A stretch of 54,035 bases of DNA, filler included, from Streblomastix strix (Eukaryota), in assembly GCA_008636045.1 (NCBI GenBank). It is 3 parts of 3 records of this genome, joined end to end, with 100 filler letters (N's around TTAATTAATTAA, not from the genome) between each part and the next. Parts side by side here need not be neighbours in the genome. Positions count along the whole stretch, not along the records: positions 36,097 to 54,035 come from SNRW01000657.1; 2 more parts are not named here. One strand, written 5' to 3'. A program made the position numbers and the translations under genes. A model generated the notes under the pieces. That model had not been told where the DNA came from. It ran no database searches and saw only the letters and a list, made by a program, of their open reading frames with translations. Of this stretch, positions 1,214 through 54,035 are shown piece by piece. How positions within the stretch are numbered: the first letter of the stretch is position 1; each line of letters starts with the position of its first letter.

Positions 1214-3100
<1,887 letters not shown>

Positions 3101-17100: not shown

Positions 17101-17952
17101 TAGTTCTAATCCTCGTTCAACTTCACGAACTCGAACAAGAGCATCTCCCAATTAAACAAGACCTGCAATTTGTGCTGATGCAGAAGATTAAATAGGTACT
17201 TGAGATTATTATAAATCACCCCCTGATAGTTTAGATGATGCAAGTACTTATTATTATTACTATTATTTCAATTCTGTTTCCATAAGCTGCCTTTATACAC
17301 GCATAAATCCTTCCTTATCTCCTTTATGACTAAGAAGAGCATCTGCCAATTTCAACTATGCTTATCTATATTGCTAATCATCTTAGCTTACTTACTCTAA
17401 TTATTTAATAGCATTAGTTAAATCGCCTTATTATAGAAATGCATCAGCTTCAACTAGTACAATGCTTGTTTCTTCTGGAAGACCTGATAATTCTGTTCGT
17501 CCTTATTCTAAGTATCGAAATGCTTACTCCTATAAATGTGTGAAAAAAATTGAAATTATGAAATGAAAAATAACAATTATGTTAATAATAACATATATAA
17601 TTATTATTTATAAATACCCATTCTTTTTTCTTCATATGGAGCTATGCAAGTTCAATGAAAAGAAGAGTTTTGTCACGAGGTGATATAATCAAATTTTCTG
17701 TGTCTAAATCTTTATCTTTCTAAGTTTATTGTTATTAAATCTATTTCTGTCGTCCTTTCTTTTCTGATGCAGTAACAGAATCAGGATTGGAAGATTCAAT
17801 TGGATTAGTGCGTAAACAAACACCTGGCATACTTAGAGTATTTAACAGCATTTTCTTTCCTTCTTCGATATCTTAAGGAATTCTGCTTCTTACAAGTGCT
17901 TATCCCATAATTATACAATAAGATGTATTTTTACGAATATTGAATTCTCTTG
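14185..17952 (-). CDS. TTC21B: Intraflagellar transport protein IFT139/TTC21B (TPR protein), 3' part; 5' end cut by contig boundary
   Basis: C-terminal EEFERAYLMLAQIYIK...NKSSATAHELLGYVFEQEKSFVNAAENYEQCWKL...DPVIGYMLAFNYMKGNRFLDAITIS...YTRIKSEILERSRSLLR closely resembles the TTC21B C-terminus; TPR helices upstream; several GT-AG introns; TGA at 14185-14187. Confidence 0.9.
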
Positions 17953-18052
17953 NNNNNNNNNNNNNNNNNNNNNNNNNNNNNNNNNNNNNNNNNNNNTTAA
18001 TTAATTAANNNNNNNNNNNNNNNNNNNNNNNNNNNNNNNNNNNNNNNNNNNN
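17953..18052. other. Artificial contig-joining spacer (N44-TTAATTAATTAA-N44)
   Basis: Exactly 100 nt, symmetrical Ns around a six-frame-stop linker; unrelated genes on either side. Confidence 0.97.
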
Positions 18053-22500: not shown

Positions 22501-25500
22501 TCATTTGCATCATCTTCATCTCAGTTTGCATCATAACAACAACTGCGGGAAATTCCTTCTCTTATTTGTTTCTGGGATGTTCCTTCGAGATCCATTCTTG
22601 CTTCAATACAACCTCAAATAACTGTTATCACTCTTCAAGTATCAAATTAAGGTGAAATTGTTGCAGTTGTTGGAAAGGATGAAAATGGTAAAAGTGTACT
22701 TGCTGTGTATGACTGTAGTAAAGTGAGAGAAATGAACAATAAGAAAAAAGATAAAATATAATCAAATATTGAGGAAGAAATTGATTCTAGGAAATAAGAA
22801 TAAGATAATAATAAGAATTTGAATGAATAAGAAATAAATCTTATTTCAAAGATGTATATTTAATTCAATTCCATTTCACGTATAGAATTCTTCCCATTTG
22901 ATACTCGTTTTATTACTTGTGGAAGAGAGAGTATCAGAATTTGGAGATTGAAAGATGGAAAGGAATTAAAAAGTATTGGAATTAATTTAAAAGATAATTC
23001 ACATTAAATTTTCACTGATATTGCATTTATTCCAAGAAACATTAATGTAGCAAACAATGTTAATAAATCAAAGAATAATTTATAATCTTCATCTTAATCT
23101 CAACGATTTTTAGTCTCAACTTAATCCGGTTATATTTTCATTTGTGATGTAGATTCACAATAGATTCTTGAAACTCATAAAATTTTAAATCATTCAATCA
23201 TTTCTGTTTCAATTCTTTCAGACAATGTTTTTATTGGATCTTCTCAGGGATTGTTAAGTATTTGGCCACTAAAATTTGATGAATGTATAAATTAATAAAT
23301 TTTAAATGGAGGAATAGTTTCACTTACCCAATCGCCTAGTGGATAATAAATATTATTGGGATCTTCTGATGGATCAATATCAACATATGATATTTAACAA
23401 AAAAGGATAAAATAAATAGTACGATCACATTAGGGTGCTATTGTTTCATGCTCAGTGAATTATTCTGGATTGGATTTTGCAACTGCTTCTGTAGATGGCA
23501 CAGTGCGTATCTGGAACATAGGATTAATATCAAGTGGGATTTTATAAGAATGGAAAGAAAATGGAATTAAGAATGATGGGAAGATGAGAGCTCTTGCATT
23601 TGGTATTTGTCCTTAAGTTGCTGAATTATCTTCACCTGACGATCTTCCATTAGCCGTTGCATTCTGTCCAAATATTAATAATGATTAATTTTCTATCAAT
23701 CAAAATAGTTAGTAATAAATATCAGCATCATCTTAATACATTTCACATTCTCACCTCCTTGCAATAGGATATAGATCAGGATTGATATAGATATTTGACA
23801 CCGGTTCATAATAATCAATCTCTAGATTTAAAACTGGAAAATCTGCTATTACAAATATTTTATTTGATAAAAGCGGTAAGTTTATGATAGTTTCTTAAAA
23901 TGATGGTACATTGATAGTATTTGAATAATAATCATCTATTAATAATTTGGATAATAATATTAATAATCAAAGTTAATAAAGGTAATCTCAATCTATTTCA
24001 TCTCTGTATTCTCATAAAATTCGCTAAATTGATGGCGCTTGTTCCAATATACGAAGTCATTTTTCAATTTCAAGTAATAATGCATATTTTGCAAGTACTG
24101 CATATGATACATCGATTTACATAATATCACTTTAGTCTCTCCAACATATTCATACAATAAAATTGTAAGATGAAAGAAATGAGACTAATAGAAATTTAAT
24201 AGGGAAATAAAATGAGAATAATGATAAGAAAGTACAATAATTTAATATTTAAAAATTATTTAGAATATAAAACGAATTTATTTAATGTCATACTTTTAAT
24301 AACTCAAATTTTGATCCTGTTTTATTTATTGGTACAAATAATCGTATTCTCTTTTACAATATTAATGAATAATTTCTTGGTATAATAGAAAGTGCAAATA
24401 ATTTACATTCAATATCTGCAATCAGTGTGAAAAGTGGAATTAGACAAAAAAATATGATTATTTACGGGAGTGTTGATAATGTTAGAATATCATTAAGTTA
24501 ACAATAAGAGAAATAAATTGAGAAAAATGGTGAAATTGTTCCAGAAACTCATATTATAGTTACACCTTTCAATTCATCTTCTCAAAATTAAAATATTCAA
24601 AGTCAATTTTAGTCATAAGTATTCGCCTCACATTATGGATCAATTACATAATTATGTTTAACTTCAGATTAAAGAAGATTAATATCAATTGGAAATGATG
24701 GGTGTATATGTGTTTGGATATTAAATGATTAAGATGAAGAGAATAATGTTGAAGAAACTACTTTGAAAGAAAATGAAAATCAATTAATTGTTACGAATTA
24801 AGAAGATAAAAATATAAGAAATTAAGGGAAAGAAATTCAAAATATAGAAATTAATGAATAAGCAAATAATAATTCAGAAAAAGATGATATTGATGATAAA
24901 TCTTTGGGTTAATTAATAAATTTAAATTCTATTCCATCATTAATAACTTCATAAATCCAAATTAAAGATAAAATATAAGATGATGAACAGAAATAATAAA
25001 TGAAAATGAAAAATAATAAAAAAGAATAATTGAATAAACTAATATAAAATAAATATTATATAAAAGAATTTGATTATAAAGAACATTTAAATGAAAGTGA
25101 TACAGATGATACAGAAGAATATAATAGTGAAAAAGATGTGGCTAATAATAATATAATAATTAGAAATAATAAAGAAGAAAGCAACGATGGAGATGAAATT
25201 AGTAGTTAATTGGTATAAGATTTAATTAAATAGTAAGAAACAGAAGAAGAAGAAGAAGAAAATAATGGAAAAGGGGTTAAAATATTTATCATTAAAAATG
25301 GGAAAGTGAAAAAAATAAAAAAATAGAAAGAAATGTAACAAGAATAACAAAAAGAAACTTAATAAGAATAATAAAAAGAAATTAGAAGTCCAATAATAAA
25401 GAAACGAAAAATAAATTCAAAAAGTCCATCTAAGAAAAAAAGAAGCAAAACAAATACATAAAACAAGAAAGATATAAATTAAAGCGAAATATATAATAAT

Positions 25501-28500
25501 GAAGACTCAGAAGAAGAATACGAAAAAGGAAGAAATAAGAAAAGAGATGAATTGGATTTCATGCATAATAATATTCATCTCATTTAATCAGCATTTCCAT
25601 ATTCATCATATTCAGCTTCTTATTCTTATCATTCTTCGCATATTTCTCCTTAATAATTGCCTTAGTAATATCTATTCACTCTTCCAGATAAGAAAATGTA
25701 TGAAAGAAGATAATAAGAAAAATAAATTGAGAAAAATGGTGAAATTGTTGAATAAAATACAAATTTAAATAAACTTCCTCTTTGTCATAACTAATCATTT
25801 TCATAATAAAAATATCAATCATACAATCAGATACAATCGCATCTTAGCAATCTTCCTTCAATACCAATCTTTTTACCACCTTCTCCTTCTTAATCTGGTT
25901 TGTCTCTTTCATTTATTCTTTCTCACAATATTAATAAAATGAGGGGAAAAAGAGGATAAGGAAAGTTAGGACCAATTTGGATGTAGAATTCAAATTAATT
26001 AAATGAAGATAGATAATAATAATAAAATTGTTTGTTTGCTGGAGGTGGATGTGGAAATATTCCTGTTATTTACAATGGAGAAAATAAGTTGATTTGTTTC
26101 CCAGCATATTCTTTAAAAAGAAAAAGAAATAACGAACAAAATGAAGGACTTTCTTAAAACAAATAAATTTATAATGAATTTATTTTTCAATCTTCCGAAT
26201 TCGATATCATTCATACACCTCTTGAAATGTCTCCATAGCTTTTTAATCCCAATTAAATATCTTGTTTTACTATTTACCCCGATCCAAAGTATATTAATGT
26301 AAATAGTAGAAAATAGTAAGAAAATAATGAGAATCAGAATAACAAAAACAAATTGATTAGAAAAGAAGATAATAACAGTCAATAATCCACTCTGTTTTCT
26401 AATGAAGTAAACTTCCTTCCAAATGGATATTCATTGATATTAGCAGGAAGAAGTGAAACTGTTAAATAGAGGAATAATAGTATAAATAAGAATAATACTC
26501 AAGATGATGATAATAGTTTTTCTTCTCTTTCACTCTGGTTATACATTCATTCAGATTCATTTATTTCATAAACATAATATCCTCTTATATCATTCGCTGG
26601 TTCTGTTGCTGCACATCGTTCAGGAATACAATGTGTAGCATTCTGCCCTTATATTGTTAATTCATTACCAAAAATGAGTGAAAAGATGTAAAGATTATCA
26701 GAGGCATTTATAAAACCATAATATTCAAAAACATCATCTTCCTCACTTATCTATACATTACCACCTTCTTTATTTGTAGTATCAGTAGGAGATGCTGCAG
26801 AAGGAAAGATTGCACTTTGGAGATTGAATATAAATGAGATTGGAATAGATGATGATGAGGAAGAAGATTAAGGAAATGGAAGTGGTTCAATTAGAAATAG
26901 GAAATAGAAAAAGAAAAATGAATGTTTATAACTGTTATAAGTCTAAGAATGTACAAGGATCACTCATTCAATTTAATTTATTCCAATTTAACATTTTTCT
27001 TCTTCAATTTCCAATTCTCAATAAGCACTTGATATAATATCTTCTTTTGTAACATCTGGTTAAGGTGGAATTGATTTCTGGTAAATAGAAAGAAAATTTA
27101 ATTCAGAATTAGCATGGTAAATACTTACTAATATTTCACCTTTGTAATTAGCTATAGTTGGAAGATTGAGAGATGCTTATGTTGAGTAAGAAGCTTAGAA
27201 AAATAAAATAGAAAAAGAAATTGAAAATAATATTTAAAACAATGGAGATGATTAAAACAAATAAAATCTTCCTAATAATTTCATTTCACTTTCACATCTA
27301 ACTGAATCAGAGGTAATTAATGAACTTTATGGGCTTATTGATTAGTAAACAATTATAAGAATAATTGATTAATGTACATCTTATAGTTTAAAAGTGTAAT
27401 CAGGATTGTGCTTATAATAATATATACCAAATTATTTAGAGAAAAATATTGTTTTGAATGATAATCATGTTGGAATGACTATTGGCATATTAAATGATAA
27501 TGATTAATTATCAACTTCAAATACATCATAAAAATCTCCTCTGATTATTTCTTCGACTGATTCTGGTTCGTTAGTTGTTTGGGATTATGAAAGGAGATTG
27601 GCGATGTAAGTTTTAAAAAATGTTGCAATTTCAGAAATTTGCCATATTGAGCTTTTTTATTAAAACGAATAATAAAGAAAATGTGATGATTTAATTGAGA
27701 ATAAATAGAAAGAAATGATATAAAATTAATTATTTTAATTTTAGTCACCATCTTTTACTTCTTCACTAAATCTTCTAATTGCAGAAACAAATGGAATAAT
27801 TACTATTTATAAATAGATTAATAAAAATGCTTAAAATTCTACTGGTTTCCAAAAATCATTAGAAGAAATTGAAATAAATTAGAAATCATAAAAATTATCA
27901 TAGCTTAGTCATTTAATTACTCCATCATCATCTTCATCATTTGATTCATAATACTTAAATAATAACGATGAGAATAAACGAATAATCAAATTCAATTTTG
28001 GCTAATCAAAATCATCGAATATTTAACCCATATTCTTAAAATATGCTTCTTAATAATTTAAGGAATAAATTCTGTCTTGTTGTTATGGAGGAAAGGATAG
28101 TATATTTATAGCTTTGGAAAATGGGAAATTAATTTAAAGTGAAATTGAATAATTTAGAAATAACTAAAATTGCGAATATGAGAAAAATATTTTGAATGAA
28201 TAGAAAGAAAAATCTAATAAAATAAGATAATTATACAGAAACTTTGATATTGATAGAGATTAATAGATAATAACTCATACAGGGTCACTAATAGAAGTTA
28301 ATGAATAAATATTACTTACTGCATCTTCACGATATATAAGAGTTTGGAGACTTTTTGATGATGGATAAAGCAAGAATAATATGAATAATATTGGACATGG
28401 TTATTTTAGTCGATAGTTCGATGCAGATACATTATTATAAGGAATATAAATTAATTCTTCCAATGAAGAATAATAAAAATAGAAAAATGAATTATAATCA

Positions 28501-30906
28501 AAGAATAAAAATTCATCTAAATAATTAAAAAGTAGCACTCCATCATTACAATCTTCACACACTTTGAATGATTAATTAATATAATAAAATGAAAATGAGA
28601 AATAAAAACAAGAAATTGAAGGAAAGAGAATAATTGAGTCAATATTGAAACGAAGGAAATTACTTTTGGGAGAAAAATGTGGATGCCCTGCATTTATATG
28701 TGAGATTGAATGGGAAAATTAAGTTAATATAAATGAAGAACAAAGAAAAGATAATGAATATGATGAATAGAAAGATGCGAATAAAATATAAGAACTTGGA
28801 ATAATTCACGAGATAAGAACTGAAAACAATGATTTAAATAATAATAAAGAAAATTAGCTGAAATTTAATATTTAATCTTCCCCTTCATTCATTACTTCTA
28901 TTTGTCAATAAAATTCAGAATCTCCCATAAATCTTCTTTCTCCAACTTCTCAACAATCTCAATTCTTATCATCGCTGTAACTAATAGTTCCTTTTGGTCC
29001 TTTGGCTGCAGCTGTTTCTGATGAATACTCAAATTAACAGCAAAATTAATAATAACTAAAATCTGATATTTCATTGTTGGATAAATCATCGTCACTTCCT
29101 TCGATTTATTTAATTGGATCTGGTGACAATTATGGAAATGTTTGTTTATTTGACTTATTTACTAAGGTTAAAATTTGGGAAATTTAAGCATTTGAAAATA
29201 AAATAAAAGCTTGTGCTATTAGATTTTGCCATTTAGATTAGGTTTTGTTAATTGGAGGAACTAATGGATTATTTCTTGTATATGATTTGAGAGACGGAGA
29301 AGTTAAAGTGAAAATAAATGAATTATTGAAGAAAAACTAACATGTGGAATAAATCAATTCATTGAACAAATTATATGATAATTAACATCAATAATAATAA
29401 AATCTTCACCACTGGTTGCAAAGTTCAATGAATTCACTAACTCCATCTCAATAAGCATATTAGTCAATATTTAATTATCCATCTTCATTTCTCTCTCCCA
29501 TAAATTAACCTTTAATTATACCCACTCATTCTGGTGCATCAATTAATTCATTCTCTCTTTCACCATTCAGCTCCAAAATTATACTTTGTGTTACCAATAA
29601 TTCATTTTCAATTTGGTTTGTTCATAGACGAAGTTAAATTGGAAACTAATTTGAATAAGAAATTGGATGGTTTAAAACAAATGAAATTAATTTGAAATAA
29701 TAATAATCAAATTCATAATTAGAAAGAGAGTAAGATAACATGGCTAAAATATAATAGGATGCTAATAGATAATAAGAACAAGAAAATTTTAATAATAATT
29801 AAGATATATAAAATTTTGTAAATGAAAGATTAAGAAATGATAATTATTCTGACTTAAAGCTAAAATAATAATTCAAAACATTTGAAAATAATAATAGTGA
29901 TATTTTTTTGACTCTCCTTTCAATTAAATAATTTTCGGAATAAGAATTAATATAATTTGGATTAAATTCAATTTCATAATTATCCAATATTAATATTTCA
30001 TATCTTTCTTCTTAATCGCATTCCTTAGATCCTCTTCAATCAAACTAAATATCGCTTCAAGTTTAATTTCATCCAAAAGATCGAAGTTGTGTCTTTTTTA
30101 TGACAAATAAATAAATTTCCACATTTAATTTCACTTCTCAAACTATTATTTCTTCAATTCCTTATAGTTCTGTTTATCCAACTTGTTTTTCAATATGTCC
30201 TTTATTACCAAAAATTATTTTACTAGGCAATTAATAAGGAAGATTGAAAATTATTGATGCTTAAAATGAAACTTTCTAAGACTTTTTTTGTTATGGAACA
30301 AATATTAATCGTATTCTTTTTTCTAGAAATGGAGAATATGTTATTACTCTTGGAGAATGCCAAAATGAAACAGAAGATGAAAGAGATGGAAATATTTTGA
30401 TCTGGAATATGCCTTTTATAAAATCAAATACTTAAAAACAAAAATAAGATAACAATAATCCGAGAATAATAAAATTTAATTAATAGAAATATTAATAAAT
30501 CTAATAAGAAGCCAGATATGTTGCAATAACTCCTCCATCATCTCCTCCAATATTTTAATCAGATATTTCATCTCTTATTATTAAAAGATAAGGAATAAAA
30601 CCAAAAATTGACTTATAAAATGCTAAATAATTAAAACAATAGAAGAAGATTCAATAAACTCAGAAAAGTAGTGTTGTTTAAAAGAAGAAAATCTTGAAAG
30701 AAACAAATTAATCAAATTTAATTATTGAAAATAAAGCAAAGAAAATACTTTAAAAAGAATCAAGCATCGAAAAAGAAATATAAATTAAAAGGGAAATTAT
30801 TGAAAAGAAAAAAGCAAACATTTAATAATTAACTTAAGAAAATGTAAAAGAAGAAACGAGCGAGTGGGAAGAATGTGAATATGAAGAGGATGATTCAAAT
30901 TAATGA
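19570..30906 (+). CDS. WDR90: WDR90/POC16 centriolar inner-scaffold protein (N-terminal CFAP20/DUF667 domain plus WD40 repeats), about 3700 aa
   Basis: N-terminus WQHPYYSLF...GSISSNNYIRFPKK..ESIGLTGKLLY...YVIHLE..YRISFGN..LKSIQICSTLIIRAVWTSD is the WDR90-type CFAP20 domain. Later LKLETLIGY, TCGRESIRIWRLKDG, VRSHQGAI, ATASVDGTVRIW. Four 5' introns, then one 10,557-nt exon (20350-30906) with no internal TGA. Confidence 0.9.
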
Positions 30907-35996: not shown

Positions 35997-36096
35997 NNNN
36001 NNNNNNNNNNNNNNNNNNNNNNNNNNNNNNNNNNNNNNNNTTAATTAATTAANNNNNNNNNNNNNNNNNNNNNNNNNNNNNNNNNNNNNNNNNNNN
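35997..36096. other. Artificial contig-joining spacer (N44-TTAATTAATTAA-N44)
   Basis: Same 100-nt structure as the first spacer. Confidence 0.97.
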
Positions 36097-36831
36097 ATCA
36101 ATAGATAATAATCATTACTCATTCAAACTGAATAAGAAACAGTCAATCAAATTAATTATTCAACCCCAACTGTTCATCATCCCACACTCTTAACAGCTCC
36201 TACAAACACATTATATAACTAATATAATTTACAAAATGATGCATAAAATTAATAATAATCATAAATTAATTATATTTCATAGGATTCTTCTATAATACAT
36301 TCTTTCAATTCTTAATAACAATAAAAAATCTAATAAACTAAATAATAATCTATTTTACCTCCAATCCCCAAATATATTATTAAACTTAGCTCTAAATTAA
36401 GCAATGTTTATGATAAAGATCGTTTATAAACATCAAAATCCTTAAGTTTATCTTAAACTGTAAAACAAGAATAGTCTTCATTAAATAATTCATTTCAAAC
36501 TCAAAATTCTTCTTTAGTTAATTCTCAGTTAAATAATAAATAATAAGATAATAATTTTGATATTATTCATAGTTCTTCTTAATAACAATATTCAAATTCT
36601 AATAAATAATCATAAATATAATAATAGTTACTGTAAGAGACAAGTTCCTAGATTAGCTCTTATATTGAAAAAGATAAATATAATACAAATGATTCTCCAC
36701 TTCATCTGTCTGGTCTTAATTTATCAAATCCTAATGTTTAATAATCATATTAATAAAGATAGTTTCTGCTATAATAACAATAACTATAATATGAAAATTC
36801 TTTATTTTAGAATCAATAACAATTTCCTTTA
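36097..36831 (+). repeat. 735-bp direct repeat, copy 1 (copy 2 at 53025-53759)
   Basis: Offset 16,928 nt; about 13 substitutions counted by eye, no indels. Confidence 0.95.
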
Positions 36832-39800
36832 CTTATATATAATCGTCCTCCATATAGGCGCAAATTGTGTCTATTCATTGTATTTTTATATTAGAATGCA
36901 AATATAAATACTTAAGAATCTATCCAAGATTAGTAATAATATTATTCTTAATTACTTTCATCTTCAAAACGTAAATAAGATGATACAATTCCGCAATAAT
37001 TATAATTAGAGAATATATCTGTTGTAATGAAATAATTTCCTGAGAATAGAAATTAGTCATAAGTTTTGACATAATCATAATTAAAATAAGATTTTTTCTA
37101 GTCTGATATTTCTATTAATTAATAAAAGATATTGAAAATTCCATCAACTTAATTTTCTCCAAGATCAAGCTCTAACTCTTAATAATCAAATATAAGAAGT
37201 TAATCCCCAACTTTAAATTAACATTCAATTAGCATAACACTTCCATAGCAATTATCTTCTCATTAAAAATAGAAATAAATTCGTAAATCTCTGAAAATGA
37301 TGTAAAATCAAACCAATACAAGGAAAAATTTATACACATATTTCTTAAGATGGTATTTCTATTCACTCAACAAAGCATAATAAAAGGAAAAAATCAGCCG
37401 CATTGTGAAACATCACTGCATAATGATCCTTCGTCGAGCATTCTCTATTATCGAATCAATTACAGAGATCAAACGAACAGAAAAGGCCTTAGTCACACAT
37501 ATTGAAACAAACAGAAGACATAATTTAATTTTGAGATCATTCAATCAATTTAAGGACAATTGGAAGTAAGAAAAAGCTGGGCGTCAGTGGAATGGACAAG
37601 TTGGTTAAATTATATCATAAATTCAATTGTTATAAAGAATGAATATAATGCAAAATGTATTAATTAATGGATTTATGGCTTATAAGAATTAGAAAATAGA
37701 TCGAAGAGAATCAAATTAGAAAGCAAGATCTTGGAGAGAATAAGAGTCGCTCTTGCATTTTTATTTCAGAATATGGCAAGATAGATATATAAGACTATGT
37801 CATGAAAGAAGAGATCTAAGAGAAGATGCAATATATTGTAGAAAGGAGAGAATATATGGGAATGTATTTAATTGGTGGAGAAGATTGTCTAATTCAAAGA
37901 TTAGAAGAAGAGAATTACTCTTAGAAGGATATGAAACAATAGTTAAACTGCCACAAATGAATAAAGTATTCATTGCTTGGGCTGGATGGACATCTTAAAT
38001 AGTTGGTTTTAAGAAGATGCAAGCTCGTAGTGTTATAAGGAGATAACAAGAAGATAAAGAATATACTCAAGATTATTTAATTGATATATTTATTCAATGG
38101 AGAGATGTATTAGTCAGAAGAAAGAATTATATTAATAATAAAATTAAAGAAGGCGTTGGATTAAAATAGAAAATTAGAATTGAGAGAGACATTTTTAATG
38201 TATGGAAGGATTATTCTTAATACAAAAATGGATTGAAAAAAATTAAAAAATTGCATTGGGATATTAATCAGCAAAAAAGATCTACGAATATAATAAATGA
38301 TTTAATAAGAAAAGTTAAAGAAAATTCATATATAACAACAATAGATAAACCAGATGAAGTTCAGAATAGCAGAGATTCCAAATTAACACTTGAAGATTTG
38401 GGAGATTCAATAATCTCTAATCACAAATTTATTAAAGTAAGAAAAGTTAATGAGAAATAGAATTAATAAGAAACCAAGATTTCACTTCCAGAGATTCCTT
38501 AGTCAATTTTTGCAGTTAGTGTTGGATCAGGAAATGCATTAAATACTATTAATATATAAAGTACATTTCAATAATTTAATGATAATAAATGGATTTAGAG
38601 TTATGATGATGATTATAATAATAATAACATTCCTAAAGGAAATAATAGAAGGAAAGCGTATTAGATTCTTCATTCGTGGATATTAATATATTTTTCGGTT
38701 TTATTTTAAAGGAAGAGAGTTGAGCGTATTATTATGAATAACTGGAGAGAATATTCAATATTCAAGAAAGAAATTAAACTGAATATGTAATAATTTTAAA
38801 TATAAATGAGTTAGAGAAATAGATAGACAGTTGAAATGAATGTATTAAAGTAGTGGTAAGATCTTTATTTGAAATCAATATAAACTTAGCAAAAGGAATT
38901 TAATTTAAATTAGAAATATGAATAGAAACTATAATCTGATGTATTTTAAGAATGGTTCTAAATAACTAATAAGAGAAAACAATTGAAGAATAAACTAAGG
39001 TTGGCTCATAAGAATCCTCGGATTGGCACAATGCTATTAACTTAAAAAATAATAATTAATTGGAACTAATATATGAAGATGAAGAAGAATCTTAAATAGT
39101 TAAATAAGCAATTTATTCCTTAAAGAAATAAGTAGAGAATTTAAATCAACTTTATTGGATGGAGATAATAAACATCAAAAGTGTTGCAAAGGAAAAGAAA
39201 GAAGATGAAAGATGCTTTTCTTGCTTGGAATAAAATTATTATTCAAAGAAAGAAATCAAAAATGAAAAACATTGAATTAGAAATTCGTAGATAAGTAGTG
39301 ATATGTCGAATATTTATGAGAACATTGCGTGATAAATCAAAAAAGAATAAGAAATAGAAATCAGAAATTAAATAAATGAACGATAAAAGAAAAAGAAAAA
39401 TTCTTATTTTAGCATTTTTTTGCTGGAGGGAAATCTCATAGTTTCAAATTGCAATAAAGAAGAATTTGAATCAAATTAAGAAACAGCGCTCAATTGAAAG
39501 AGCAAAACCATAATTTAGGATTTGGCACAATCTCACATTTGATACTATAAGACATTAAGAAATACAATCAAAGAAGATAAAATTACTTGCAAAAGTTTTC
39601 AATCATTGGAAATATCACACAAGCAGAAAACATGATATGAAAATTTTATTTAGCAAATAACAAAATCCAAACATGAATGATTAAGAATAATAATCAGTAT
39701 CTCCATCTCCTGAAAGAGGACCAATTAATATAAATTAGATAAGATTGAGAATAGAAGAAAGAAATAAAAGAATGTAACAGTAATAGATTGATATTCAACC

Positions 39801-41005: not shown

Positions 41006-41840
41006 ATGTAAATCATAATGATTGAGCATTACTATGTTTAGACTCTTGCTTTTATTTAATATACATTAACAGCTAAATTCATTAATACACTTCATGTGTC
41101 ATTTCCCTATATTTAACTTTCAATTATTTCTTTTATTTATCACAATTTTTCATTTATTTAAGTTTTTTTTAAAATTTCAATAGTATGCACATATTAATTA
41201 ATTTAAACCTAGTTCTACACCGAGTTCAACCCTTGTTGCACTTAGAGAATATGACATGAGTATTCTTCGTGGCATAATACAGAATGTTCTTATAGGAGTT
41301 GGAATAACACTTTTCACATTCTTTAAAAGCAAGAAAGTTAATTAAATGATATTCTAAATTGCCTTTGCTCCATTCAACTTAATACGCAACAATCTTTTTA
41401 AAGCGCACATATTACGATCCGATATTGAAAGACCTTTCCCTTAATCAGGAATGTAGAAATTTATGGCAGATTTACTTGGAAATGCATAAGAATAATTGAA
41501 TTAAGCACAAGGACAAGGACAAGGATAAAGCAGTTCATCTTCATCCAAGCCAAAGAAAAAGAAAGGATCAAAAGCTCCAGAACTGAAAGGTCCACTAGCT
41601 GTAGTTGGAAAACTTCTTAATTAAGAATCCGGTAGTACTGTCCTTACGCCAAAAGAAGCTATTCAAAAGTAGTAAAAATAACAAATGGAATCATCTAAAC
41701 AAGGAAAAGGAAAGAAATCGAATAAAGAACATGGAAATGCAAGTGTTGGAGGTGCAAATTCAAAAGCTTCAGGTTTACATGCACCAGCTAAATCAGCAAA
41801 TCAAAAAATTTCAGACCGAAAAAAGCGAAAGAAGCATTGA
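41006..41840 (+). CDS. PHO88: PHO88/SND3-family membrane protein with Lys/Gly-rich C-terminal tail
   Basis: Exon from 41184: ALREYDMSILRGIIQNVLIGVGITLFTFF...QMIFQIAFAPFNLIRNNLFKAHIL..DIERPF resembles the Pho88 EYD...HL..KRPF core; TGA at 41838-41840; first exon tentative. Confidence 0.7.
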
Positions 41841-42745: not shown

Positions 42746-45700
42746 TCAACAATTAATTGTAATGGTTTGGTTGCAGAAAGGGCATTCGGGCTTAAGCGAG
42801 ATTGATTGAAGTCTATGCAAACAATAAGCACAAAGGAGATGAGAATTCGTACAAATAGTTTCAGTTGCCTTATGTGTGAAGCAAATTTCACAAATTTGTA
42901 CCTAGTCAGAATTTTCTTAAATATTCTTCATCTATTTTCTATCAGAACCAATTCTATCAATAAAGCACTTGAAAGCAACAAGTACTCTATTCTCATATTC
43001 TATCTCATCTGTTATTTCACGGACTTGTAGTTCATTTGCACACGAATTTCTAATAGTCCACTACTATTTCGCCCATAAATACACTTTTCCCATTGTCTGT
43101 ATGTTTAATGATGAGTCTGAGCATATATGAATAAATTACTCTCCAAAATCTGTGCTTTCAATCTTTTCACTCAAAGTTCCTATTTGAAATGCTAAGTGGC
43201 TGATCAGTGAGATACAAGGTGAAATTAGCATTGGGATACTTTGCATCATTATTTGAGTCCATACTGCCTCTCTAACAGGTCGCTAAATGCCTGTCCGTTC
43301 CCCACAAAATGTGAATATTGCGCTTATTAGATCAAGAATGATTGGTAAATTAAGAATAGCTTTAGTTTTAACTGCTTATTAATCATTTAGGCCTAAAATA
43401 TACGGAGCTTTTCCTGCTATTCCTTCAATAATTCTTAATATAGCAGCAAGAGTTTCAACTAACTAATGCTGCTTCAGTTCAACATGTGACCATTCTATTG
43501 AATCGAATGCCTCATTCATTGTATTAATTCTTCCTTCAAGTGAAACGAGACTTGTTAATAGTCCATGTCCTTAATTTAATATATATTTTATAAGTCTCAT
43601 AGTTAATGGAGTTGGAATTTACTAATCTGTTTTAATATCATTTTCATTGATTGTTAGCTCAGATATAAATGCATTCCATATTTTATTTGGTGTGCGAATG
43701 CATTGTTCAGTTGAGTAATTCAGTGGTGTTGATAATAAAAGTGGTTTATAAATACGAGAAGAAGGGGAAGTACTTTATGATGACGATGCAAATACTGATG
43801 AAAGAATAAAAAGATTCCGAATTTCATCACATCTTCCTATGATTCTTCGAGATAATATCCTCAATTCATCTTAATTAAGATTTGGTTGTTAATTTGAATA
43901 TTTTTCTATTCCTTATTCGAATTATTAGTAAGAGTCAAATGAATGTGTTATTATCATTAATAATAAATCTTATAATATAGAATGTGCACTAGTACTACTC
44001 ACTTCTCCAGATTTATTCAATTCATAGGGACCTTTAGTAATTTAATCATATGGAACATCAATTAAATATGAATAGCATCTAACTGCAGATAATGAAGCTG
44101 TTCGTTAAAGAAGTTCTTAACTTTTTGAATCTTTATTTAATGTATGAGATTATAAAACACGTAATGTTGCGATTGTGGAAGCAACTTTTACATAGAATAC
44201 AGGAATATATTAAAAGTCTGGCATATTTGAACCTTAGTTATTTATATAATTATCAAACTGAAGCATATCCAAAGTTATTTCCCAAAGAGAATTAAGATCT
44301 TTATTTAATAAAACACCAGAAAATGGTGCATATTCATTAATCAAAGTACGAAATAGTTATTTTGCACCTCTGATTGATTATTCTGCTTCAAATTACAATT
44401 AATCTGCTGATAACATTGTTTCACTCTGTGTAATCAATTATAGGCATTATTAGTTTTGAGTTAAAGATGAAGTTTGTTGGTTTGTAGATGAAATGATTGA
44501 TTTTGAAGTGGATGCATTTTAGAGATATTCTGATTATTGTTAATTTATTTAATTTTCTAATTATTAATTCTTCAAAGATGATTTCTATAATTAGAGCAGA
44601 TCATCATTCATTTGTTTATTTATTTTCAAAGCAGTATAATTTTCTAACGATATAGCGCGTCCATTTAAATAAGCCGCATAAGACAATTGAATATTTCGAA
44701 TTGCAGGAGGAAGAGTAAGTGCAAATAAATAAATAGAGAAATCAGTCAGTAGAGACAAACTCCTTTCTGTAAGATGAAGATATTAATTTGGATACCATAA
44801 CTATTAAACCCAATGTTTCATTTATTTTTATTAATATTCTTCATTACTAGAAGAATATGCTGTAATTGATTAATCTGATGTACATTTATATTCTTGGGTA
44901 TATTGAGAAAGATTTTATTCATTTAACTCTTCATTTCTCTTGTTAATTATATTTTCTTATTAAGTTAATCCTTTTAATCGACCTAGAGTTGATTTTGTTA
45001 ATATATTTGGTACAAGAGAAAATGATGTTTGAGAAGATTTATCTATTACAAATTTGTATATATTATTTGATTCTATATTCAAATATTTCTAATTATTTTC
45101 ATTGAATTTATTTCCTCTTCGAATGGACCTCCACAGAGCAATTGATAATCCTAATGCTGCATTTGGACTAGGTTAGCGTAATAGGAGTTTGAGAAAGATT
45201 GATTTTATAATAATAAAATTGGGTAATGCATTTTATAGGATAATTGAAATGATTTTTGAATTAACAGTATGAAGTGTTTCTAAATAGAGCGAGCTTAGCG
45301 GAAGAAGATTAAATATAAACTGTTGCTTTGAAATATAACTTTATTTTTTATTATATTTCTCATTTATTTTATATTATTTCAGTATTATTTTACTCATTTG
45401 AGATTGAGGTGTTTAAATTTATATCCAATTTTCATCAGAATCGTTAAAAGTTTGTTTTATTCTGCTATTAACTTAATCTTTTAAATTCTAATTTTCAAAA
45501 AGAAATTGATTCTCTTTTAATTAATCATTAAATAAATCTAATTGTGGATAATTAAAATGATTAAGTGATGATTAATGAAGTATTTCCATTGTATTTAATG
45601 AGAATATTGTAGAAAGATAAGGATAAGAAATTGACTAATGTTAATTATTACTAATTTATTTATACTATATCTTAACATTATTTATATCTTCTTAAATACT

Positions 45701-48700
45701 TCTTTCTTTAATATCTTTCATTCTTATTTCATTTTCTTAATTTAATAACATCTACAATTCATTTTAGCTTAAAACATTCATTGTGTCATTTCTGCACACT
45801 TTTGGATTAAGTATTAATTGAGTTGATTAATTACCTAATACTTGTTTATATTAGAATAAAGATGCTAAATCAATGAGATCTTCCGTGGGTCAAGTGAGAT
45901 GATGAAATTATTACTATATCAGTTATTTGAATGAAAATTAATATTTTGAAGAAATATCATCAATAGATTTATTTGATTGATTTTATTCTTTATCAGCTTA
46001 TTAATCTTATTTAAATTCAGAGCCATCATTACCATCAGAATTTAATTAGTGTAATTCATTAATATAAGGAAATAATCTCTCAAGATCCGCTTAAGATCTT
46101 TTTGGCAAATCAAAGAATATATTTCTTAACATGAACAAACAATCTCCACAATATCCTTAAATATTCTCTGGACTTACATCAATTCCTTCTGTATCCTTCT
46201 CTTCTTCATATTCTTCTGTTTCTTCATTATCCCATTCTTATTCTTATTTTGATTCATCATTATCTTATATTTGCTTTTATTTTCTTATTAATTATTAATT
46301 CTATTAATCCTTTCTTTTCTCCATTTTAATCATTTTATTTAATATTCCAATTAAATATGTCTTCTTTCTGTACTTACATATACTACTTATATTTATCCCT
46401 CTAAATAAAAGATGTAATGTAAAATCTCCTTTATCAAAAAAATCATCATCATCATAATCTTCTTCTTCCTATTCAGATTCTTTTTCATTATTTATAATAT
46501 TAAAAGAATGCTCTTTCATTTAAGTAATATTTTCTTTTTATTATTCTTTACCTAATTTGATTTTTTGTTTCTTTATTATTCCAATTTAATTTTCATTCTT
46601 TTTCTTTTTCTTCATCTTCTTATTCATTAATAATTAATCCAGATTTTTCTTCTTCTCTTTTTGTTTCTATGTTTAATTCTTTTTCTTTTCTTTCACTTAT
46701 TCTTTTGTATCTTTTTCTAACTCTTCTTTTATTTATTTCATATCTTCAGTCATTCTCTGTTTTACATTTCTTATTATTCTCTCCTTTTTATCTTCTTCTT
46801 CTTATATTTAATTTAATCTTCATCTATCCAATAATTTAACTTAAACTGATATTAAAGGAAGAGCTTCTTATAGAAATGAAATAATTGCATATCTGGCAGT
46901 CAAAGGGTTGGCTAATACCCAACAAACGCCATTACAGGCTTAAAAACTTTTATTTGTCTAATTTTAAAATTAAACTTACATCTTTTACATATTTTCATAC
47001 TCATCTTCATTATTATTCAATTAATATTTGTTTATATATTCACTTTTGTTCTGATTAATATAACATGCCCCAAATGGTAGAATTGGATGATTGACCAAAG
47101 CAGAAATAAATACAAATGATAAGTTATTCATTGCAAGATAAAATTAAACATCCAAATCAGTTTCAGGGGCTTCAAACGAAATATCAATTTCGGAATCCGA
47201 ATCAAATCGGTTATCTATATTATTTTCTTAAATTTGTGTCAATTCCAACTATTTATCTTATTTATTTCTCTATTTATTTTTATTAAAAGATTGAGAATTT
47301 TATTTTGCATTTATTTATTTATGTTTCTTATGCAATTACTAATTAATATCAATTTATTATTCTTCATGGATTTCTTAATGTTCAAATTTGTTATATTCAA
47401 GTTCAAATTAACTCATCAAGTTCTATTCAATATCGTCTCCCATTATTATTTATATTAATTTAATAATTGCTTTTAATTCTCTTATTCTTTTTCTTTCTTA
47501 TTTCTTCTTGTCTCCTTCATTATATATTATATTGTCTTATTTATTAATATTTAAAATGTCTCTAATCCATTCAATATCATCATTTATTTATTATTTATTA
47601 AATGATTTGAATTTCTTATTCTTTTCTTATAATATTTCATTTTCATTATTAATATTATCTTTTTCATCGTCATTATCTTTCTAACTTTCTTCTTCTTCAT
47701 CATCATCTTACTATTATTATTATTTTAATTTTAATTTATTCATCTTTTTTCTCTCTAATTTTCTTTTCCTTTTCAATTTTTTCTTCTCAACATCAGTTAA
47801 TGCATTTCCCTTCTCATTCTGATCTTTCTCATTTTATTTATTTATCAATTCAATATTCTATTAATTGATTATTTACTCTTCTTATTCTTAATTCATATCT
47901 TACTCTTATTCAATCATTCTTTGAGTATTGTCAAACAAAGGAAGTAGAAGAGCAACTCTGAATATTAATTTATTAAGCTCAGATCTTATTAATTCTGATT
48001 CATTAATACTAGATGCGTTTTCTTAAATGTTTTCTAATGAAAGATCTTATTCATTTTCCATTTTTTCATTTAAATTATCTTTTTCAATTTGAAGAGATAA
48101 TGGTATTTATTATTAGAATTATTCATTATCTTTATTTTGAAGTGATTTATTTTAATTCAATTGATTAAATGATTATAATAACTAGAAAGGACTATACTAA
48201 GAATGTAGAAATGATGAAGGAGTAATAAATTATGAAATGAATTAAATAAAATTACACTTATTCATATCAAATTAATTATTTTCATCAATCTGAGATTATT
48301 ATTCCTATTAATTACCAATTTGATTATTAATTAGGATATCATCTAATAATTCTCTCTCTATAAATGATTAGGATAGATCTCCTCCAATCCAATTTAATAT
48401 ATAGTAATATGATAGAGACAAAGAATGTGAAGTGAAAGTATATAGTAAAAGACGAAGAAATTAATGAATGAGTGAATTACGATAGATTATAGTGGGACAT
48501 CTTGGGTATAGATGAGAAAGTTTCTATATGTTTTACGCTTAATCTTATTAATTGTTATTTAATTCGCGTTATTTATTAATTTAATCAAGAAGAGTCTCTT
48601 ATATGTATATATTAATTAATTGTTATGTAATTGGAAATAACTTATTTGAAGTATTAACAATTGATTAAGTTAAATCAAAAGCAGGAGAAACACAAGGCTA

Positions 48701-49394
48701 AAACCCTTCAACTGGATATCTGAATGGCACATCACTGTATAATAGAATTATGGAATGAAATCAATGAAAGATTGAAAAAAAGCAAACCCATAATTAACCA
48801 ACACTGCTCCTCCCTTTTCCATTGAAACATATGGAAAGAATGTTTCTAGAAATGGACTTAAGGGCAAATTATTGAACGGAGAGCCTAAACTTATTCCATT
48901 TCTGAAGAATCCAATGCAACCAGGTAAGCAATTAGATCTGAATGAATAGGATTACTCTTCATTTCCAGAATTCACATCATAAGGCTCAAGATCAATAGTC
49001 ACTCCAATAACATCTCCAATTATACATGGTTCTAGAGAAGTGAGATTACGATCTGTTGATCTGGCATCTCCTGTAAATACATTGAACTGAGCCAAGAATG
49101 GAACATTTTCTTTCTCAAATGATCTTTGCTTTCTGACATATCCAACTGAAACTCCACCAGTTGTGAGCAATGACACTTCAAAATAAAATCATCCTTCAAC
49201 TAAACCAAACGGACCAAAAAATGATTCCGTAATTATTCGAGATGCTGATCTAGAAGATTTTTTAACTATAAAACGAAGAAAATTATACTTATAAGTAATT
49301 AATATTTCAAACGAATAGAACAGATGTGGACAGCAAGATCACAAAATATACTCAAATTATCTTCTGTCTAAATTGAAGAATTTTGATGTGACAT
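42746..49394 (-). CDS. RNF123: RNF123/KPC1-like E3 ubiquitin ligase (N-terminal SPRY, C-terminal RING), about 2180 codons, with three in-frame TGAs
   Basis: SPRY: G*FYFEV, GDVIGVTIDL, IGFFRNGISLGSPFNNL, FFPYVSM, VNYGDVPFRYPVEGF. RING: CEICFTHKATETICTNSHLLCAYCLHRL...ECPFC, then TGA at 42746-42748. No frameshift across the 6-kb last exon. Internal TGAs at 49189, 46820 and 45890. Confidence 0.8.
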
Positions 49395-50183
49395 CTCTAA
49401 ATAATAATAATAGTTTTAAAGAATTAAAAAAATATTATATATGTATATTCTGTTTGTGATGCTAAATCCAATCTGCAAATTCAAAGATGTTGCGAAATTT
49501 GATTTTATATTTTGTTTTAAATCCGCGCTCAACGATAATATAAATGAGATAATATTAGTAAATTTGTATATAATTTAAATTTAATAAATACAATTTAATT
49601 ATTTTAAAGTAGAATATTGTATTTTTATATAATTTAATTCATTGCATTAAAACTTAAAATTTTAATCGAAAAATCTACTATATAAGATCTTCGATTTTAC
49701 ATGAATAAAATTAAAGATAATAATTGTGGACGAGAACATAAATTATTTTAGAATATTTTTCTTTTTCTATTTTTTAGAAATTATGAGTTATGGTGATTGC
49801 AATTTCGCAACTCAACAAACGTAAGTACTTCACTCAATTTAAGATCTTAAAACTAATTTAATCTTACATATATTAACTTTTACAAGATTTTAAGCAAAAT
49901 ATCTCTCATATTTTGGCCACGGGACGAATAAATAACTAAAGCACTAATAGTGCATGAATCATGATAAATTATGGCACTTAAAAGATCTTAATACATTAAA
50001 TGAAAAGATAGTAATCTAGCTATTTACTAAATTATATCGAAACAATTATTGGTGCAGCGATAATAAAAAAAGTTATCTAAAAACTTTCAGCATTTATTTG
50101 ATACATTTTCAAGCATAATACTTATCATATATGATGACTTTTTCAAAATATTAATATATATATAATACAATTTCTCCTTCAGA

Positions 50184-51074
50184 ATGTCACAAATTCCTGA
50201 TACAAATGTTGATCCTTCAGTGAACGAATTGTCAATAGATACAGAGCCAGAGGAAGCAGTTAAGACCAGGAACATTTTTCTTGCTGTGGGCATTGTATAC
50301 TCTTTTTTATCTATTGGTACTATAGATTTGTTTAACTTTTTTTTCTAGGCACTGAACAAGTAAGATGTCAGTGAGGCAGATGAAAAATAAATTAAACAAG
50401 ATCCCATTGCACAAACAATATACGAGAAAGGAAACAAAGTTGCTGAATATATTGGCCAAACTAGCAAGAAAGGAACTACATATTTGACTGGGTTTGCTAC
50501 AAAATCAATCGTTTCATTATATTGATAAATAAAATTTATTCTTTACAGAACAATTGATAAACTGGTTGACAAAGTTTCGCCTGCTCCTCAACCAATACAA
50601 GTAAGCGACAATATATCATTTGTTGCTACTCAAGGCGCAGCATTGATCAAGACAGGGGGAGACAAAACAAAAGACTCCGGAAAGTATTTCACTATGGGAG
50701 TTGATTTCGTAGCTAGTTATGCATCAAACTACTTGTATAAGAATCAAGCTGAATTAATGGCGAAAGATGGAGTTCTGAAAGGAAGAAGGATCTTTCTTGC
50801 AATAGTAGCTGTGCTTATTGTGATTGTACATAGCATTGTAAGTTTGCTTATTGACTTCTAAGAAGTTCTTGTTGTAGGCATTGGGAAACTGAGCGCAAAG
50901 AGGTTTGGAAAGAATGTTGAAGAGATCGCTCAACTCATTACCCGTATCGTGTTCCTCCTGATTGAAGTATACATTACCGTGATTTCTACAGAGCCGCTTT
51001 ATCTTCTGGTTCTCTTACTCGTTGTCTTCACTCTGGCGGTTCTTAGGCATGTAGCAAATCCACCAACAAAATGA
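50184..51074 (+). CDS. Senescence-domain (spartin/ERD7-like) protein
   Basis: Spliced (2 introns): IAQTIYEKGNKVAEYIG..GTTYLTGTIDKLVDKVSPAPQPIQVS...KRFGKNVEEIA resembles spartin KLRERIQPEEKPVEVS...YKYGYNAGEA; hydrophobic C-terminal helices; TGA at 51072-51074. Confidence 0.6.
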
Positions 51075-51440
51075 AAAGGTTGATGAAATATAGATGCCAT
51101 CAAAATTTTATATTGAAACTAAATAGTATTTAAATAATAAACTCAATCTTGATATTGATTCTTTAGAAACAAAAAACTTTCTGCGTTTTATTGATAAAAA
51201 GTGAATGGTAAGAAAGGGCAAACTTAATTTTAAAACTTTTCAAAAACATTGAATGCATTATTATTAATATTTTCATTTAATTTAATAAATTATTCCTCAG
51301 AATTTAGAAAACAGCAATAATTATTAATATTTTAATTTTTGTACAAATGGCACATCAATATTTTAATATAGATTCAAAATTCCATAATATTACTTGAAAT
51401 TTAATTTATTTTTCTCCCTCTTTAATCAAGTAGTTCACCA

Positions 51441-53759
51441 ATGAACATATAAACTGACGAATTTTCATTTTCTTTAGATTAGTCTGCCATCCTTAATCCA
51501 TTTTATGATCGGAATCAACTTGCATCTAATAATAAACGAGAAAATGTTATGAAAGTGGATAGAAAAATAGAAAAATCTCAAAAAAGTAAAGAGAAATATG
51601 AAGATATAGAAGAAAACATAAATTATTTTAAGTTAATAAAAGCTAGGCTCGGAGCACAAAAAGTTTTTCGTATCTTTACTTCTTGGAGGAATTATTCAGA
51701 AAAGAAACACAATCTAACTGATCTTCTACGAATCTCTGGCTATAAATTCGTGAAGAAAGAAAATGTAATAAATGAAATTCCAATGGATAGCACTTATATG
51801 AATGATGTAAATCCACATATAGAATATTTTATGCATTCTTGAGTTAAATTTATTATTGAAGTTTGGCACTAGGAGGCAATGCTTCGATAGATATTAAGAC
51901 CTTCTTTTGTTACAGTGAGACTTAAACATCGAATACTTCTCAAAAGATTATTTTTTAATTATTTAAAAGAGAATCTACAATCGCAAAGATATAAGAAAGA
52001 AATTATGAATAGAGCAAATAAATTTATATCGAATCAAGAAAAGAAACTTAAAATAAATACTTTTAAAACATGGAGATAAGAAATTATATTTAGAATTCGA
52101 GGATAAATAACAACTGAATTTTTGTAGAAAAAAATATATTAAAAGAAAATGTTTTATTTATGGAAGAAACATTCGGATAAAATAAAAATTCTCCATCAAT
52201 TATAAAAATAATTCATAATGAATAGAAACATATAAAAAGATAAAATCTATTCAAAAGAAGAAAAAGAAGAGAAAAAGAGAATTAAAAATCAAAAGAAGGA
52301 ATAAAATATTAAAAATTAAAAAGAAATGAAAATAGAAGACTTAGAAGAAGATTAGGAAGATGAATCATCAATTGATTCAGATGAAGATGAAGATAATAAA
52401 CTTTATTTTGATTAGAGAAAATCAAAGATTAAATCTTTTTCTCGTTCAGATAGTAACAATAGTGAAAGTAATAATTATTCATATTATCAAGGAATGAAAT
52501 AATATTAGAAAAAGTAAAAGAATAAATTTATAATTACAACTATTACAGAGAGAGAAGCATTGATAAAAGCTGTTTTAAGAAGATGGAATTAAATTGCTAT
52601 AAATTATAAACAAACATTAGAAATGGAAGATGAATTAATAGGAAAACGCAAAAATAAATAATAAATTGAAATATTTCGAGAATGGCATACACTAACTCTT
52701 GAGTAACAGATTATATCAGGAATGATTAGGAGGCATTATTTAATTGTATAATGAACTATTCTGAGATAATGGAAAATCATTGCTTCATAAGAAAGAGTTG
52801 AAAATGATGGATAGAAATTGTTTAATAAGAAACTACGTGAATAAGAAGAGAAATGGATAAGAGATTTACATTTATAAGAATTGGAAAAGAATGAAAAATA
52901 TCGTAAGAAAAGAAGAGAATAAGAAGATGATGAAGAAAAGTTAGAGGATAAGAAGAGAAAGAAGCGTTGGAAAATTATTTGGGAATGGTAAGATAAAGAT
53001 GCTAAAATTACTCCAGATACTCATATCAATAGATAATAATCATTACTCATTCAAACTGAATAAGAAACAGTCAATCAAATTAATTATTCAACCCCAACTG
53101 TTCATCATCCCACACTCTTAACAGCTCCTACAAACACATTATATAACTAATTTAATTTACAAAATGATATATAAAATTAATAATAATCATAAATTAATTA
53201 TATTTCATCGGATTCTTCTATAATACATTCTTTCAATTCTTAATAACAATAAAAAATCTAATAAACTAAATAATAATCTATTTTACCTCCAATCCCCAAA
53301 TATATTATTAAACTTAGCTCTAAGTTAAGCAATGTTTATGATAAAGATCGTTTATAAACATCAAAGTCCTTAAGTTTATCTTAAACTGTAAAACAAGAAT
53401 AATCTTCATTAAATAATTCATTTCAAACTCAAAATTCTTCTTTAATTAATTCTCAGTTAAATAATAAATAATAAGATAATAATTTTGATATTATTCATAG
53501 TTCTTCTTAATAACAATATTCAAATTCTAATCAATAATCATAAATATAATAATAGTTACTGTAAGAGACAAGTTCCTAGATTAGCTCTTATATTGAAAAA
53601 GAGAATAATAATACAAATGATTCTCCACTTCATCTGTCTGGTCTTAATTTATCAAATCCTAATGTTTAATAATCATATTAATAAAGATAGCTTCTGCTAT
53701 AATAACAATAACTATAATATGAAAATTCTTTATTTTAGAATCAATAACAATTTCCTTTA
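51441..53759 (+). CDS. SFI1: SFI1-like protein, 5' part (second copy or allele); two in-frame TGAs; broken by inversion at 53756
   Basis: ATG at 51441; Sfi1 repeats (VFRIFTSWR, KINTFKTWR, KKMFYLWK, IEIFREWH); runs in frame into the sequence that starts contig 3 at 36097; TGA at 51840 and 52752. May be a pseudogene. Confidence 0.7.
53025..53759 (+). repeat. 735-bp direct repeat, copy 2
   Basis: About 98% identical to 36097-36831. Confidence 0.95.
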
Positions 53760-54035
53760 ATTATGATTACGTCAAAACTTATGACTAATTTCTATTCTCA
53801 GGAAATTATTTCATTACAACAGATATATTCTCTAATTACAATTATTGTGGAATTGTATCATTTTATTTATGTTTTGAAGATGATAGTAATTAAGAATAAT
53901 ATTATTATTAATCTTGGATAGATTCTTAAGTATTTATATTTGCATTCTAATATAAAAATACAATGAATAGACACAATTTGCGCCTATATGGAGGACGATT
54001 ATATATAAGTAAAGGAAATTGTTATTGATTCTAAA
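53756..54035 (-). repeat. Inverted copy of 36806-37085 (fold-back junction)
   Basis: Reverse complement matches 36806-37085 with about 7 substitutions; TTTA microhomology at the junction. Confidence 0.92.

Follow-up and report, generated by a model that had tools for sequence, protein, structure and literature searches.

The nuclear genetic code of the oxymonad Streblomastix strix, a termite-gut protist, is given as NCBI table 6, with TAR read as Gln and TGA as stop (Keeling and Leander 2003, as cited in PMC13002328, PMC1501061 and PMC11687900); the main text of PMC13002328 contains no occurrence of UGA or TGA. In the literature examined, nuclear codes in which all three stops serve as sense codons occur in few lineages, and in the well-tested cases UGA stands for Trp. 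Condylostoma magnum and Parduczia sp. (PMC4967479) and Amoebophrya sp. ex Karlodinium (PMC6394959) are described as reading UAR as Gln and UGA as Trp, with UGA rare in frame and also used as stop. In-frame UGA is put at 0.042% in C. magnum and 0.120% in Parduczia, and termination at UGA near the poly(A) tail has been shown for Condylostoma and Parduczia (PMC4967479). A Q/Q/R code, with TAA and TAG as Gln and TGA as Arg at low frequency, has been described from alignments in seven spirotrich ciliates of the genera Uronychia, Sterkiella, Tetmemena, Stylonychia, Paraurostyla and Uroleptopsis (PMC10089648); for some ciliates, UGA as Arg has so far been claimed on computational grounds.

We analyzed a 54,035-nt stretch of the S. 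strix genome assembly GCA_008636045.1 (hereafter the window), which has a GC content of ~18–34% in 2-kb bins. It consists of three contigs on an artificial linker (N-runs at 17953–18052 and 35997–36096 flanking a 12-nt TTAATTAATTAA spacer), so that gene order across the junctions is not real. Tables 1 and 4 were rejected because they gave no long frames, the standard code yielding no frame of 150 codons. Reading TAA and TAG as Gln (table 6) gave frames of up to 3565 codons with Pfam matches to SacI, TTC21, WD40, Pho88 and RING, and UAA and UAG are sense codons in the window, as in a context-dependent (stopless) code. The window agrees with table 6 in that TAA and TAG are Gln throughout and TGA ends genes: nine gene ends read as TGA, two of which lie 60 and 83 nt before the ends of transcripts from a run designated X2. 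It differs in that TGA also stands in frame inside long, intact-looking genes. Five in-frame TGAs were counted in the 11,406 codons of five long frames (0.044%), against 157 expected from base composition, a 30-fold rarity. Altogether, seven internal TGAs were found in three long, frameshift-free genes, the survey covering long table-6 frames, with short intron-rich genes outside it.

Like Condylostoma, Parduczia and Amoebophrya, S. strix combines UAR as Gln with rare in-frame UGA, a UGA stop and short 3′ UTRs. The difference lies in the meaning of UGA, which is Trp in those organisms, whereas Trp is the worst fit in the one alignable column of the window. The two 3′ UTRs (n=2) are also longer than the heterotrich median of 21–23 nt, and the S. 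strix code is here proposed from sequence. With the Q/Q/R ciliates S. strix shares TAA and TAG as Gln and, as a candidate, low-frequency TGA as Arg, derived from alignment; the ciliates are Alveolata and S. strix belongs to Metamonada, and computational evidence in the ciliates (PMC10089648) compares with one alignable site in S. strix. On balance we favour a nuclear code for S. strix without a dedicated stop, in which UAA and UAG would be Gln and UGA would be Arg internally and a stop near the poly(A) tail. Our literature searches returned no report of sense UGA in an oxymonad. Such a code would be the first of its kind reported in Metamonada within the literature searched, convergent with the ciliate Q/Q/R code, and would leave S. 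strix without any codon that always means stop. It would also imply that many genes in the public proteome of this protist are truncated or mis-spliced at UGA. An independent case in an oxymonad would test whether TAR reassignment combined with short 3′ UTRs leads to the loss of a dedicated stop, and by what means UGA can be read by an Arg tRNA.

An RNF123-like gene with three internal TGA codons

The RNF123-like gene, on the minus strand, comprises 2182 codons and closes with a TGA at codon 2183; further in-frame TGAs occupy codons 53, 825 and 1135. This is in close agreement with the original prediction of a TGA within about the first 50 codons of a gene of roughly 2180. Exon 1 (49313–49394, minus strand) starts at a putative ATG at 49394, identical to the start of the public model KAA6399912.1. 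The first intron (49266–49312, minus; 47 nt, GTTTGA...TAG, 17% GC) is required to join this ATG to the SPRY frame, and its length falls inside the 46–229 nt range given in PMC1501061. Exon 2 (48788–49265, minus) holds the SPRY domain and the first TGA (TGA1, 49189–49191, minus), and a second intron (48735–48787, minus; 53 nt, GTTTGC...CAG) restores an orthologue-like NYG-DVPFRYP; both introns were placed from sequence and homology, not from RNA. Exon 3 (42746–48734, minus) then runs for 1995 codons without a frameshift through TGA2 (codon 825, KLLDR*RLNQ; 46820–46822, minus) and TGA3 (codon 1135, HHLT*PTEDL; 45890–45892, minus) to a RING and the terminal TGA at 42746–42748. The public model (48700–49394) represents 167 aa of this 2182-codon gene; it splices out TGA1 and ends early.

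Both domains downstream of TGA1 appear well preserved, as had been proposed. The SPRY after TGA1 matches Pfam PF00622 at 36.9 bits (cut-off 26.3), and SPRY folds, among them solved SPRY domains, head the structure search with an AlphaFold model. The C-terminal RING scores 19.1 bits against PF13920 (E 0.0011), under the cut-off of 27; all eight C3HC4 ligands are present in the translation and line up with the RING domains of P0002 and P0009.

A protein search against 1.84 billion representatives returned seven matches: the locus itself (P0001), MONOS_8554 of Monocercomonoides exilis, two short gut-like SPRY fragments (ENA), two multi-SPRY proteins and a repeat-protein false match (P0006), which was left out. 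MONOS_8554 is a single protein of 2820 aa that extends from SPRY to RING and is homologous to the S. strix gene at both ends (BLASTP E 6e-25 for the SPRY and 2e-25 for the C-terminus). The insect RNF123, added by profile search, is the best named match (E 3.9e-5; BLASTP E 8e-13 for the SPRY). Two word-indexed protein searches gave no match, and a metagenome contig scan found no relative among 287 pattern matches.

The identification as RNF123 holds in part. In favour are the best named match and the architecture of an N-terminal SPRY and a C-terminal C3HC4 RING, which the S. strix gene and MONOS_8554 share with RNF123/KPC1. Compared with the insect RNF123 (1203 aa), the S. strix protein is longer at 2182 aa and carries low-complexity inserts. 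The RNF123-like TPR family PF25576, present in the insect protein, was detected neither in the window protein nor in its M. exilis orthologue, and the name 'RNF123-like' accordingly refers to architecture and best named match.

The SPRY column at codon 53 and the other in-frame TGAs

Minus-strand positions 49191–49189 read TGA in GGT TTA GTT GAA GGA TGA TTT TAT TTT GAA GTG, that is GLVEG*FYFEV, exactly as predicted, and the TGA occupies the first residue of a core SPRY beta-strand (G-*-F-Y-F-E-V). Alignment with other SPRY rows agreed with the description of this position as variable and often K or R. The column holds Arg in M. exilis (GGRWQFEA) and RyR2 (AGRWYFEF), Lys in the insect RNF123 (KGKWMYEV), P0003 and the moth RyR, Ala in Ash2L and Val or Ile in P0005 and P0007. 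None of the eight SPRY rows compared has Trp here, the residue to be expected under table 27 (UGA as Trp or stop), although this concerns one site only; a conserved aromatic (Trp or Phe) stands one column later. Nor does the column contain Cys, as might be expected of a selenoprotein with UGA as Sec, and Rfam at its gathering score gave no match in the window, a search that could miss a divergent SECIS.

When the single-step neighbours of TGA were scored over five aligned rows, Arg came first (+3), followed by Gln (−2), Leu (−3), Ser (−5), Cys (−11), Gly (−13) and Trp (−15); Lys scores +7 but is two bases away from TGA. As the best-scoring neighbour, Arg would most likely have been encoded by the ancestral codon at TGA1. 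Given the range of residues in this column (R, K, A, V, I), the comparison favours Arg among the single-step neighbours rather than proving it, and at one site a nonsense change from CGA or AGA to TGA would look identical to Arg decoding. Arg codons make up 8–13% of the mutational routes to TGA in exon 3, which gives the match to an Arg column moderate weight.

TGA1 is the sole one of the seven internal TGAs in an alignable column, in line with its earlier description as the most diagnostic; the regions of TGA2 and TGA3 do not align with the M. exilis orthologue. Judged as in the Q/Q/R ciliates, by TGA at conserved Arg columns, one of the seven has an informative column, which is R/K, and TGA3 alternates with Gln. 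Three further in-frame TGAs (10513–10515, 10105–10107 and 8320–8322, minus strand) belong to a gene for a SacI-domain phosphoinositide phosphatase of ~2800 codons without a frameshift, where all lie behind the SacI domain in low-complexity sequence. The remaining one (52752–52754, plus strand; HYLIVQ*TILRQW) is found in a Trp-repeat gene without a Pfam match, presumably SFI1-like. The corresponding repeat column is mixed, Lys being the commonest (K6, I4, Y3, Q3 and R2 of 30). The base following TGA does not separate the two uses, being T, A, C, T, A, A and A at internal and T, T, G, T, A, T, C, A and A at terminal sites.

Competing readings of the internal TGAs

We consider it rather probable that the TGA at codon 53 is translated, most likely as Arg, and that UGA in S. 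strix serves inside genes as a rare sense codon and terminates translation where genes end. At sites distant from the poly(A) tail, a tRNA would outcompete a weakened eRF1, and the full SPRY-RING ligase of 2182 aa would be made. Decoding could be by tRNA-Arg(UCG) through a U:G mispair at the first position, or by a derivative carrying a UCA anticodon. Near the tail, as in the two neighbouring genes with 3′ UTRs of 60 and 83 nt, UGA would terminate, and the cost of decoding would keep the sense codon rare (about 0.05%). Among the tRNA-Arg isoacceptors of S. strix, PMC8318970 describes some with A20 and some with U20; no tRNA gene was found in the window. Counting in favour of the Arg and stop reading are the Arg column at TGA1, the protein-like nature of the stretch skipped by the public model, the lack of frameshifts, the presence of TGA2 in X2 with a dN/dS of ~0.3, synonymous changes at the C-terminus and a UGA usage of 0.044%, comparable to that of C. 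magnum and Parduczia. Counting against it are the coverage of TGA1 by run X1 only, the TAA in place of TGA3 in run X3, the end of the X2 contig near TGA2, selection that is not clearly purifying past TGA3, the clustering of TGAs, the variable column, the lack of a tRNA gene in the window and the reliance on an assumed indel ratio.

The main rival to the Arg and stop reading, which we regard as possible yet unlikely, holds that UGA is always a stop and that the TGAs arose by ordinary nonsense mutation in a copy, whether allele or paralogue, that is dispensable or decaying, TGA1 having arisen from an Arg codon by one change. TGA results from ~2.4% of random substitutions in this gene, and three TGAs need ~120 neutral substitutions, a figure close to the ~2% divergence between isolates. 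At an assumed indel:substitution ratio of 0.02–0.1, the same ~120 substitutions would bring 1.6–8 frameshifts. This gene and the two other frames with internal TGAs show none, which speaks against nonsense alleles. The probability of no frameshift in the RNF123-like gene is 0.20 at a ratio of 0.02 and 0.017–0.0003 at 0.05–0.1; for all seven TGAs of the window it ranges from 0.02 to <0.001 by assumed ratio. Also against this rival, the single site that can be aligned falls in an Arg column, although Arg codons offer few of the routes to TGA. On the other side, the seven TGAs cluster in three of eight long genes (p 0.066, from approximate codon counts), as they would in decaying copies. Furthermore, TAA is the commonest route to TGA (34–63% of routes), and TGA3 is TAA (Gln) in one X3 contig (depth 4.5, so possibly an error; four of the contig's six differences listed). 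If genuine, the TAA means that TGA3 is not fixed and that no Arg codon was replaced there.

The fate of TGA2 is harder to reconcile with nonsense alleles. X2, not on record as RNA, is taken as cDNA-like because neighbouring genes show in it a GT..AG joint of 57 nt and a poly(A) end. It derives from an isolate ~2% diverged from the window, and TGA2 is common to the two. Its contig spans 46696–48694 with no gaps and is unspliced across TGA2. Over 46696–47681 all 21 of its 21 differences from the window are listed, none at TGA2, and they give a dN/dS of 0.29–0.36 (p 0.007–0.025) for a stretch mainly upstream of TGA2; in the other X2 piece one of 13 differences is listed. A dN/dS analysis downstream of TGA1 had been proposed as a check on the original prediction, and purifying selection, suggested by this piece, is not clear past TGA3. 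There, 11–13 of 37 listed changes are synonymous when pooled (dN/dS 0.5–0.7, p 0.05–0.17; 18 further differences lie beyond those listed), a pool that includes an X3 piece with 4–5 synonymous changes among 17 listed of 28 and the X1 patch described below. In the conserved C-terminus, all three differences of an X1 variant contig are synonymous (p 0.013). Comparison of a dead with a live copy can likewise yield intermediate dN/dS. Run X1 does hold variant haplotypes, which suits the nonsense reading. A patch at 44725–44865 has 10 differences with eight of nine codons changed non-synonymously, and another X1 contig matches the window over 44695–44842; the patch is an unexplained second haplotype or chimera. 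The contig comparison drops rare variants, and 100 differences lie beyond those listed.

It is improbable, in our judgement, that UGA is read through not specifically as Arg but as Gln, by a UUA-anticodon tRNA-Gln with a middle U:G mispair, or by a mixture of near-cognates (Trp, Cys, Arg). The alternation of TGA3 with TAA, the location of several internal TGAs in Gln-rich stretches and the rank of Gln as second-best single-step fit to the SPRY column are all compatible with Gln, and UGA readthrough in yeast is reported as 86% W, 7% C and 7% R (PMC4967479). The orthologue, however, has Arg, and Trp and Cys score poorly in the column, Trp worst of all. Near TGA3, the same X3 contig has further non-synonymous differences (Q to E, Q to K), and a change from Q to R would accordingly fit a loosely constrained region there.

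Gene structure could in principle avoid the TGAs, with a 146-nt intron or a downstream start skipping TGA1 and TGA2 serving as the true stop of a split gene; we consider this very improbable. KAA6399912.1 uses such a 146-nt intron, and its splice sites are compatible with the GTTT-type donors and AAG acceptors of other introns in the window. The first AG after TGA1 ends 16 nt from its first base, with the result that all 57 in-frame GT–AG candidates over TGA1, the public intron included, delete at least *FYFE; the assertion that no intron could remove the TGA and spare the motif is therefore upheld. The stretch skipped by the public model scores 83 in the SPRY frame against five homologous rows, in an alignment that included the query itself; the highest score was 69 among 1000 shuffles and 54 among 732 tiles of the window. 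It is conserved SPRY sequence with two predicted strands. In an AlphaFold model (7 rows, mean pLDDT 71.5) residues 11–30 are among the best-predicted parts (pLDDT 86–91), and predicted strand E25–32 begins at the TGA1 residue; a single-sequence fold of the public 167-aa model was uninformative (pLDDT 34.5). Homology thus argues against the putative intron. Since the locus was deposited as a 167-aa fragment with an intron removing a core strand, claims of gene absence from the S. strix proteome would need rechecking.

As for a split gene, the end of the X2 contig lies 124 nt behind TGA2, where nine unaligned letters precede a tract whose A content ranks in about the top 9% of the exon. TGA2 could therefore be a true stop with a 3′ UTR, polyadenylation and internal priming being indistinguishable here. 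Against this, X2 passes unspliced across TGA2, the frame continues unbroken past both TGA2 and TGA3, and the orthologue in M. exilis is one SPRY-RING protein.

At TGA1, a separately assembled X1 contig (4841 nt, depth 7.9) equals 47747–51466 with no differences, TGA1 included. Since minor alleles are hidden in contigs and X1 is possibly the source sample itself, the match excludes only an assembler slip. TGA1 is covered by run X1 only, with no RNA-like contig or second lineage over it; among the matches listed, no X2, X3 or X4 piece spans it. An artefact of amplification or sequencing at TGA1, or its correction by RNA editing (U-to-C giving CGA, A-to-I giving UGG), hardly seems credible even though one DNA sample covers it and the window contains an inverted duplication, given that a second assembly has the same base, that TGA2 is unedited in the cDNA-like contig, albeit from another isolate, and that seven TGAs without a frameshift are unlike random error.

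Other genes and contig structure in the window

Other genes recognized in the window include a proteasome ATPase gene at ~1212–3100 (plus), which we take to be Rpt2-like, a TTC21-like TPR gene at ~14290–17950 (minus) and a Pho88-like gene at 41022–41840 (plus). A WDR90-like WD40 gene at 20209–30906 (plus) accounts for the frame of 3565 codons and has no internal TGA.

X3 contigs at 43842–44055 and 44149–44299 are ~13% divergent from the window, others being at 2–3%; the divergent contigs represent either a paralogue or another lineage resembling Streblomastix. At its two ends (36097–37085 and 53025–54035) the third contig carries 98% identical copies of one gene region, the last 280 nt being inverted. 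Inverted duplications of this kind arise in whole-genome amplification, and the two copies are likely two haplotypes plus an amplification chimera.
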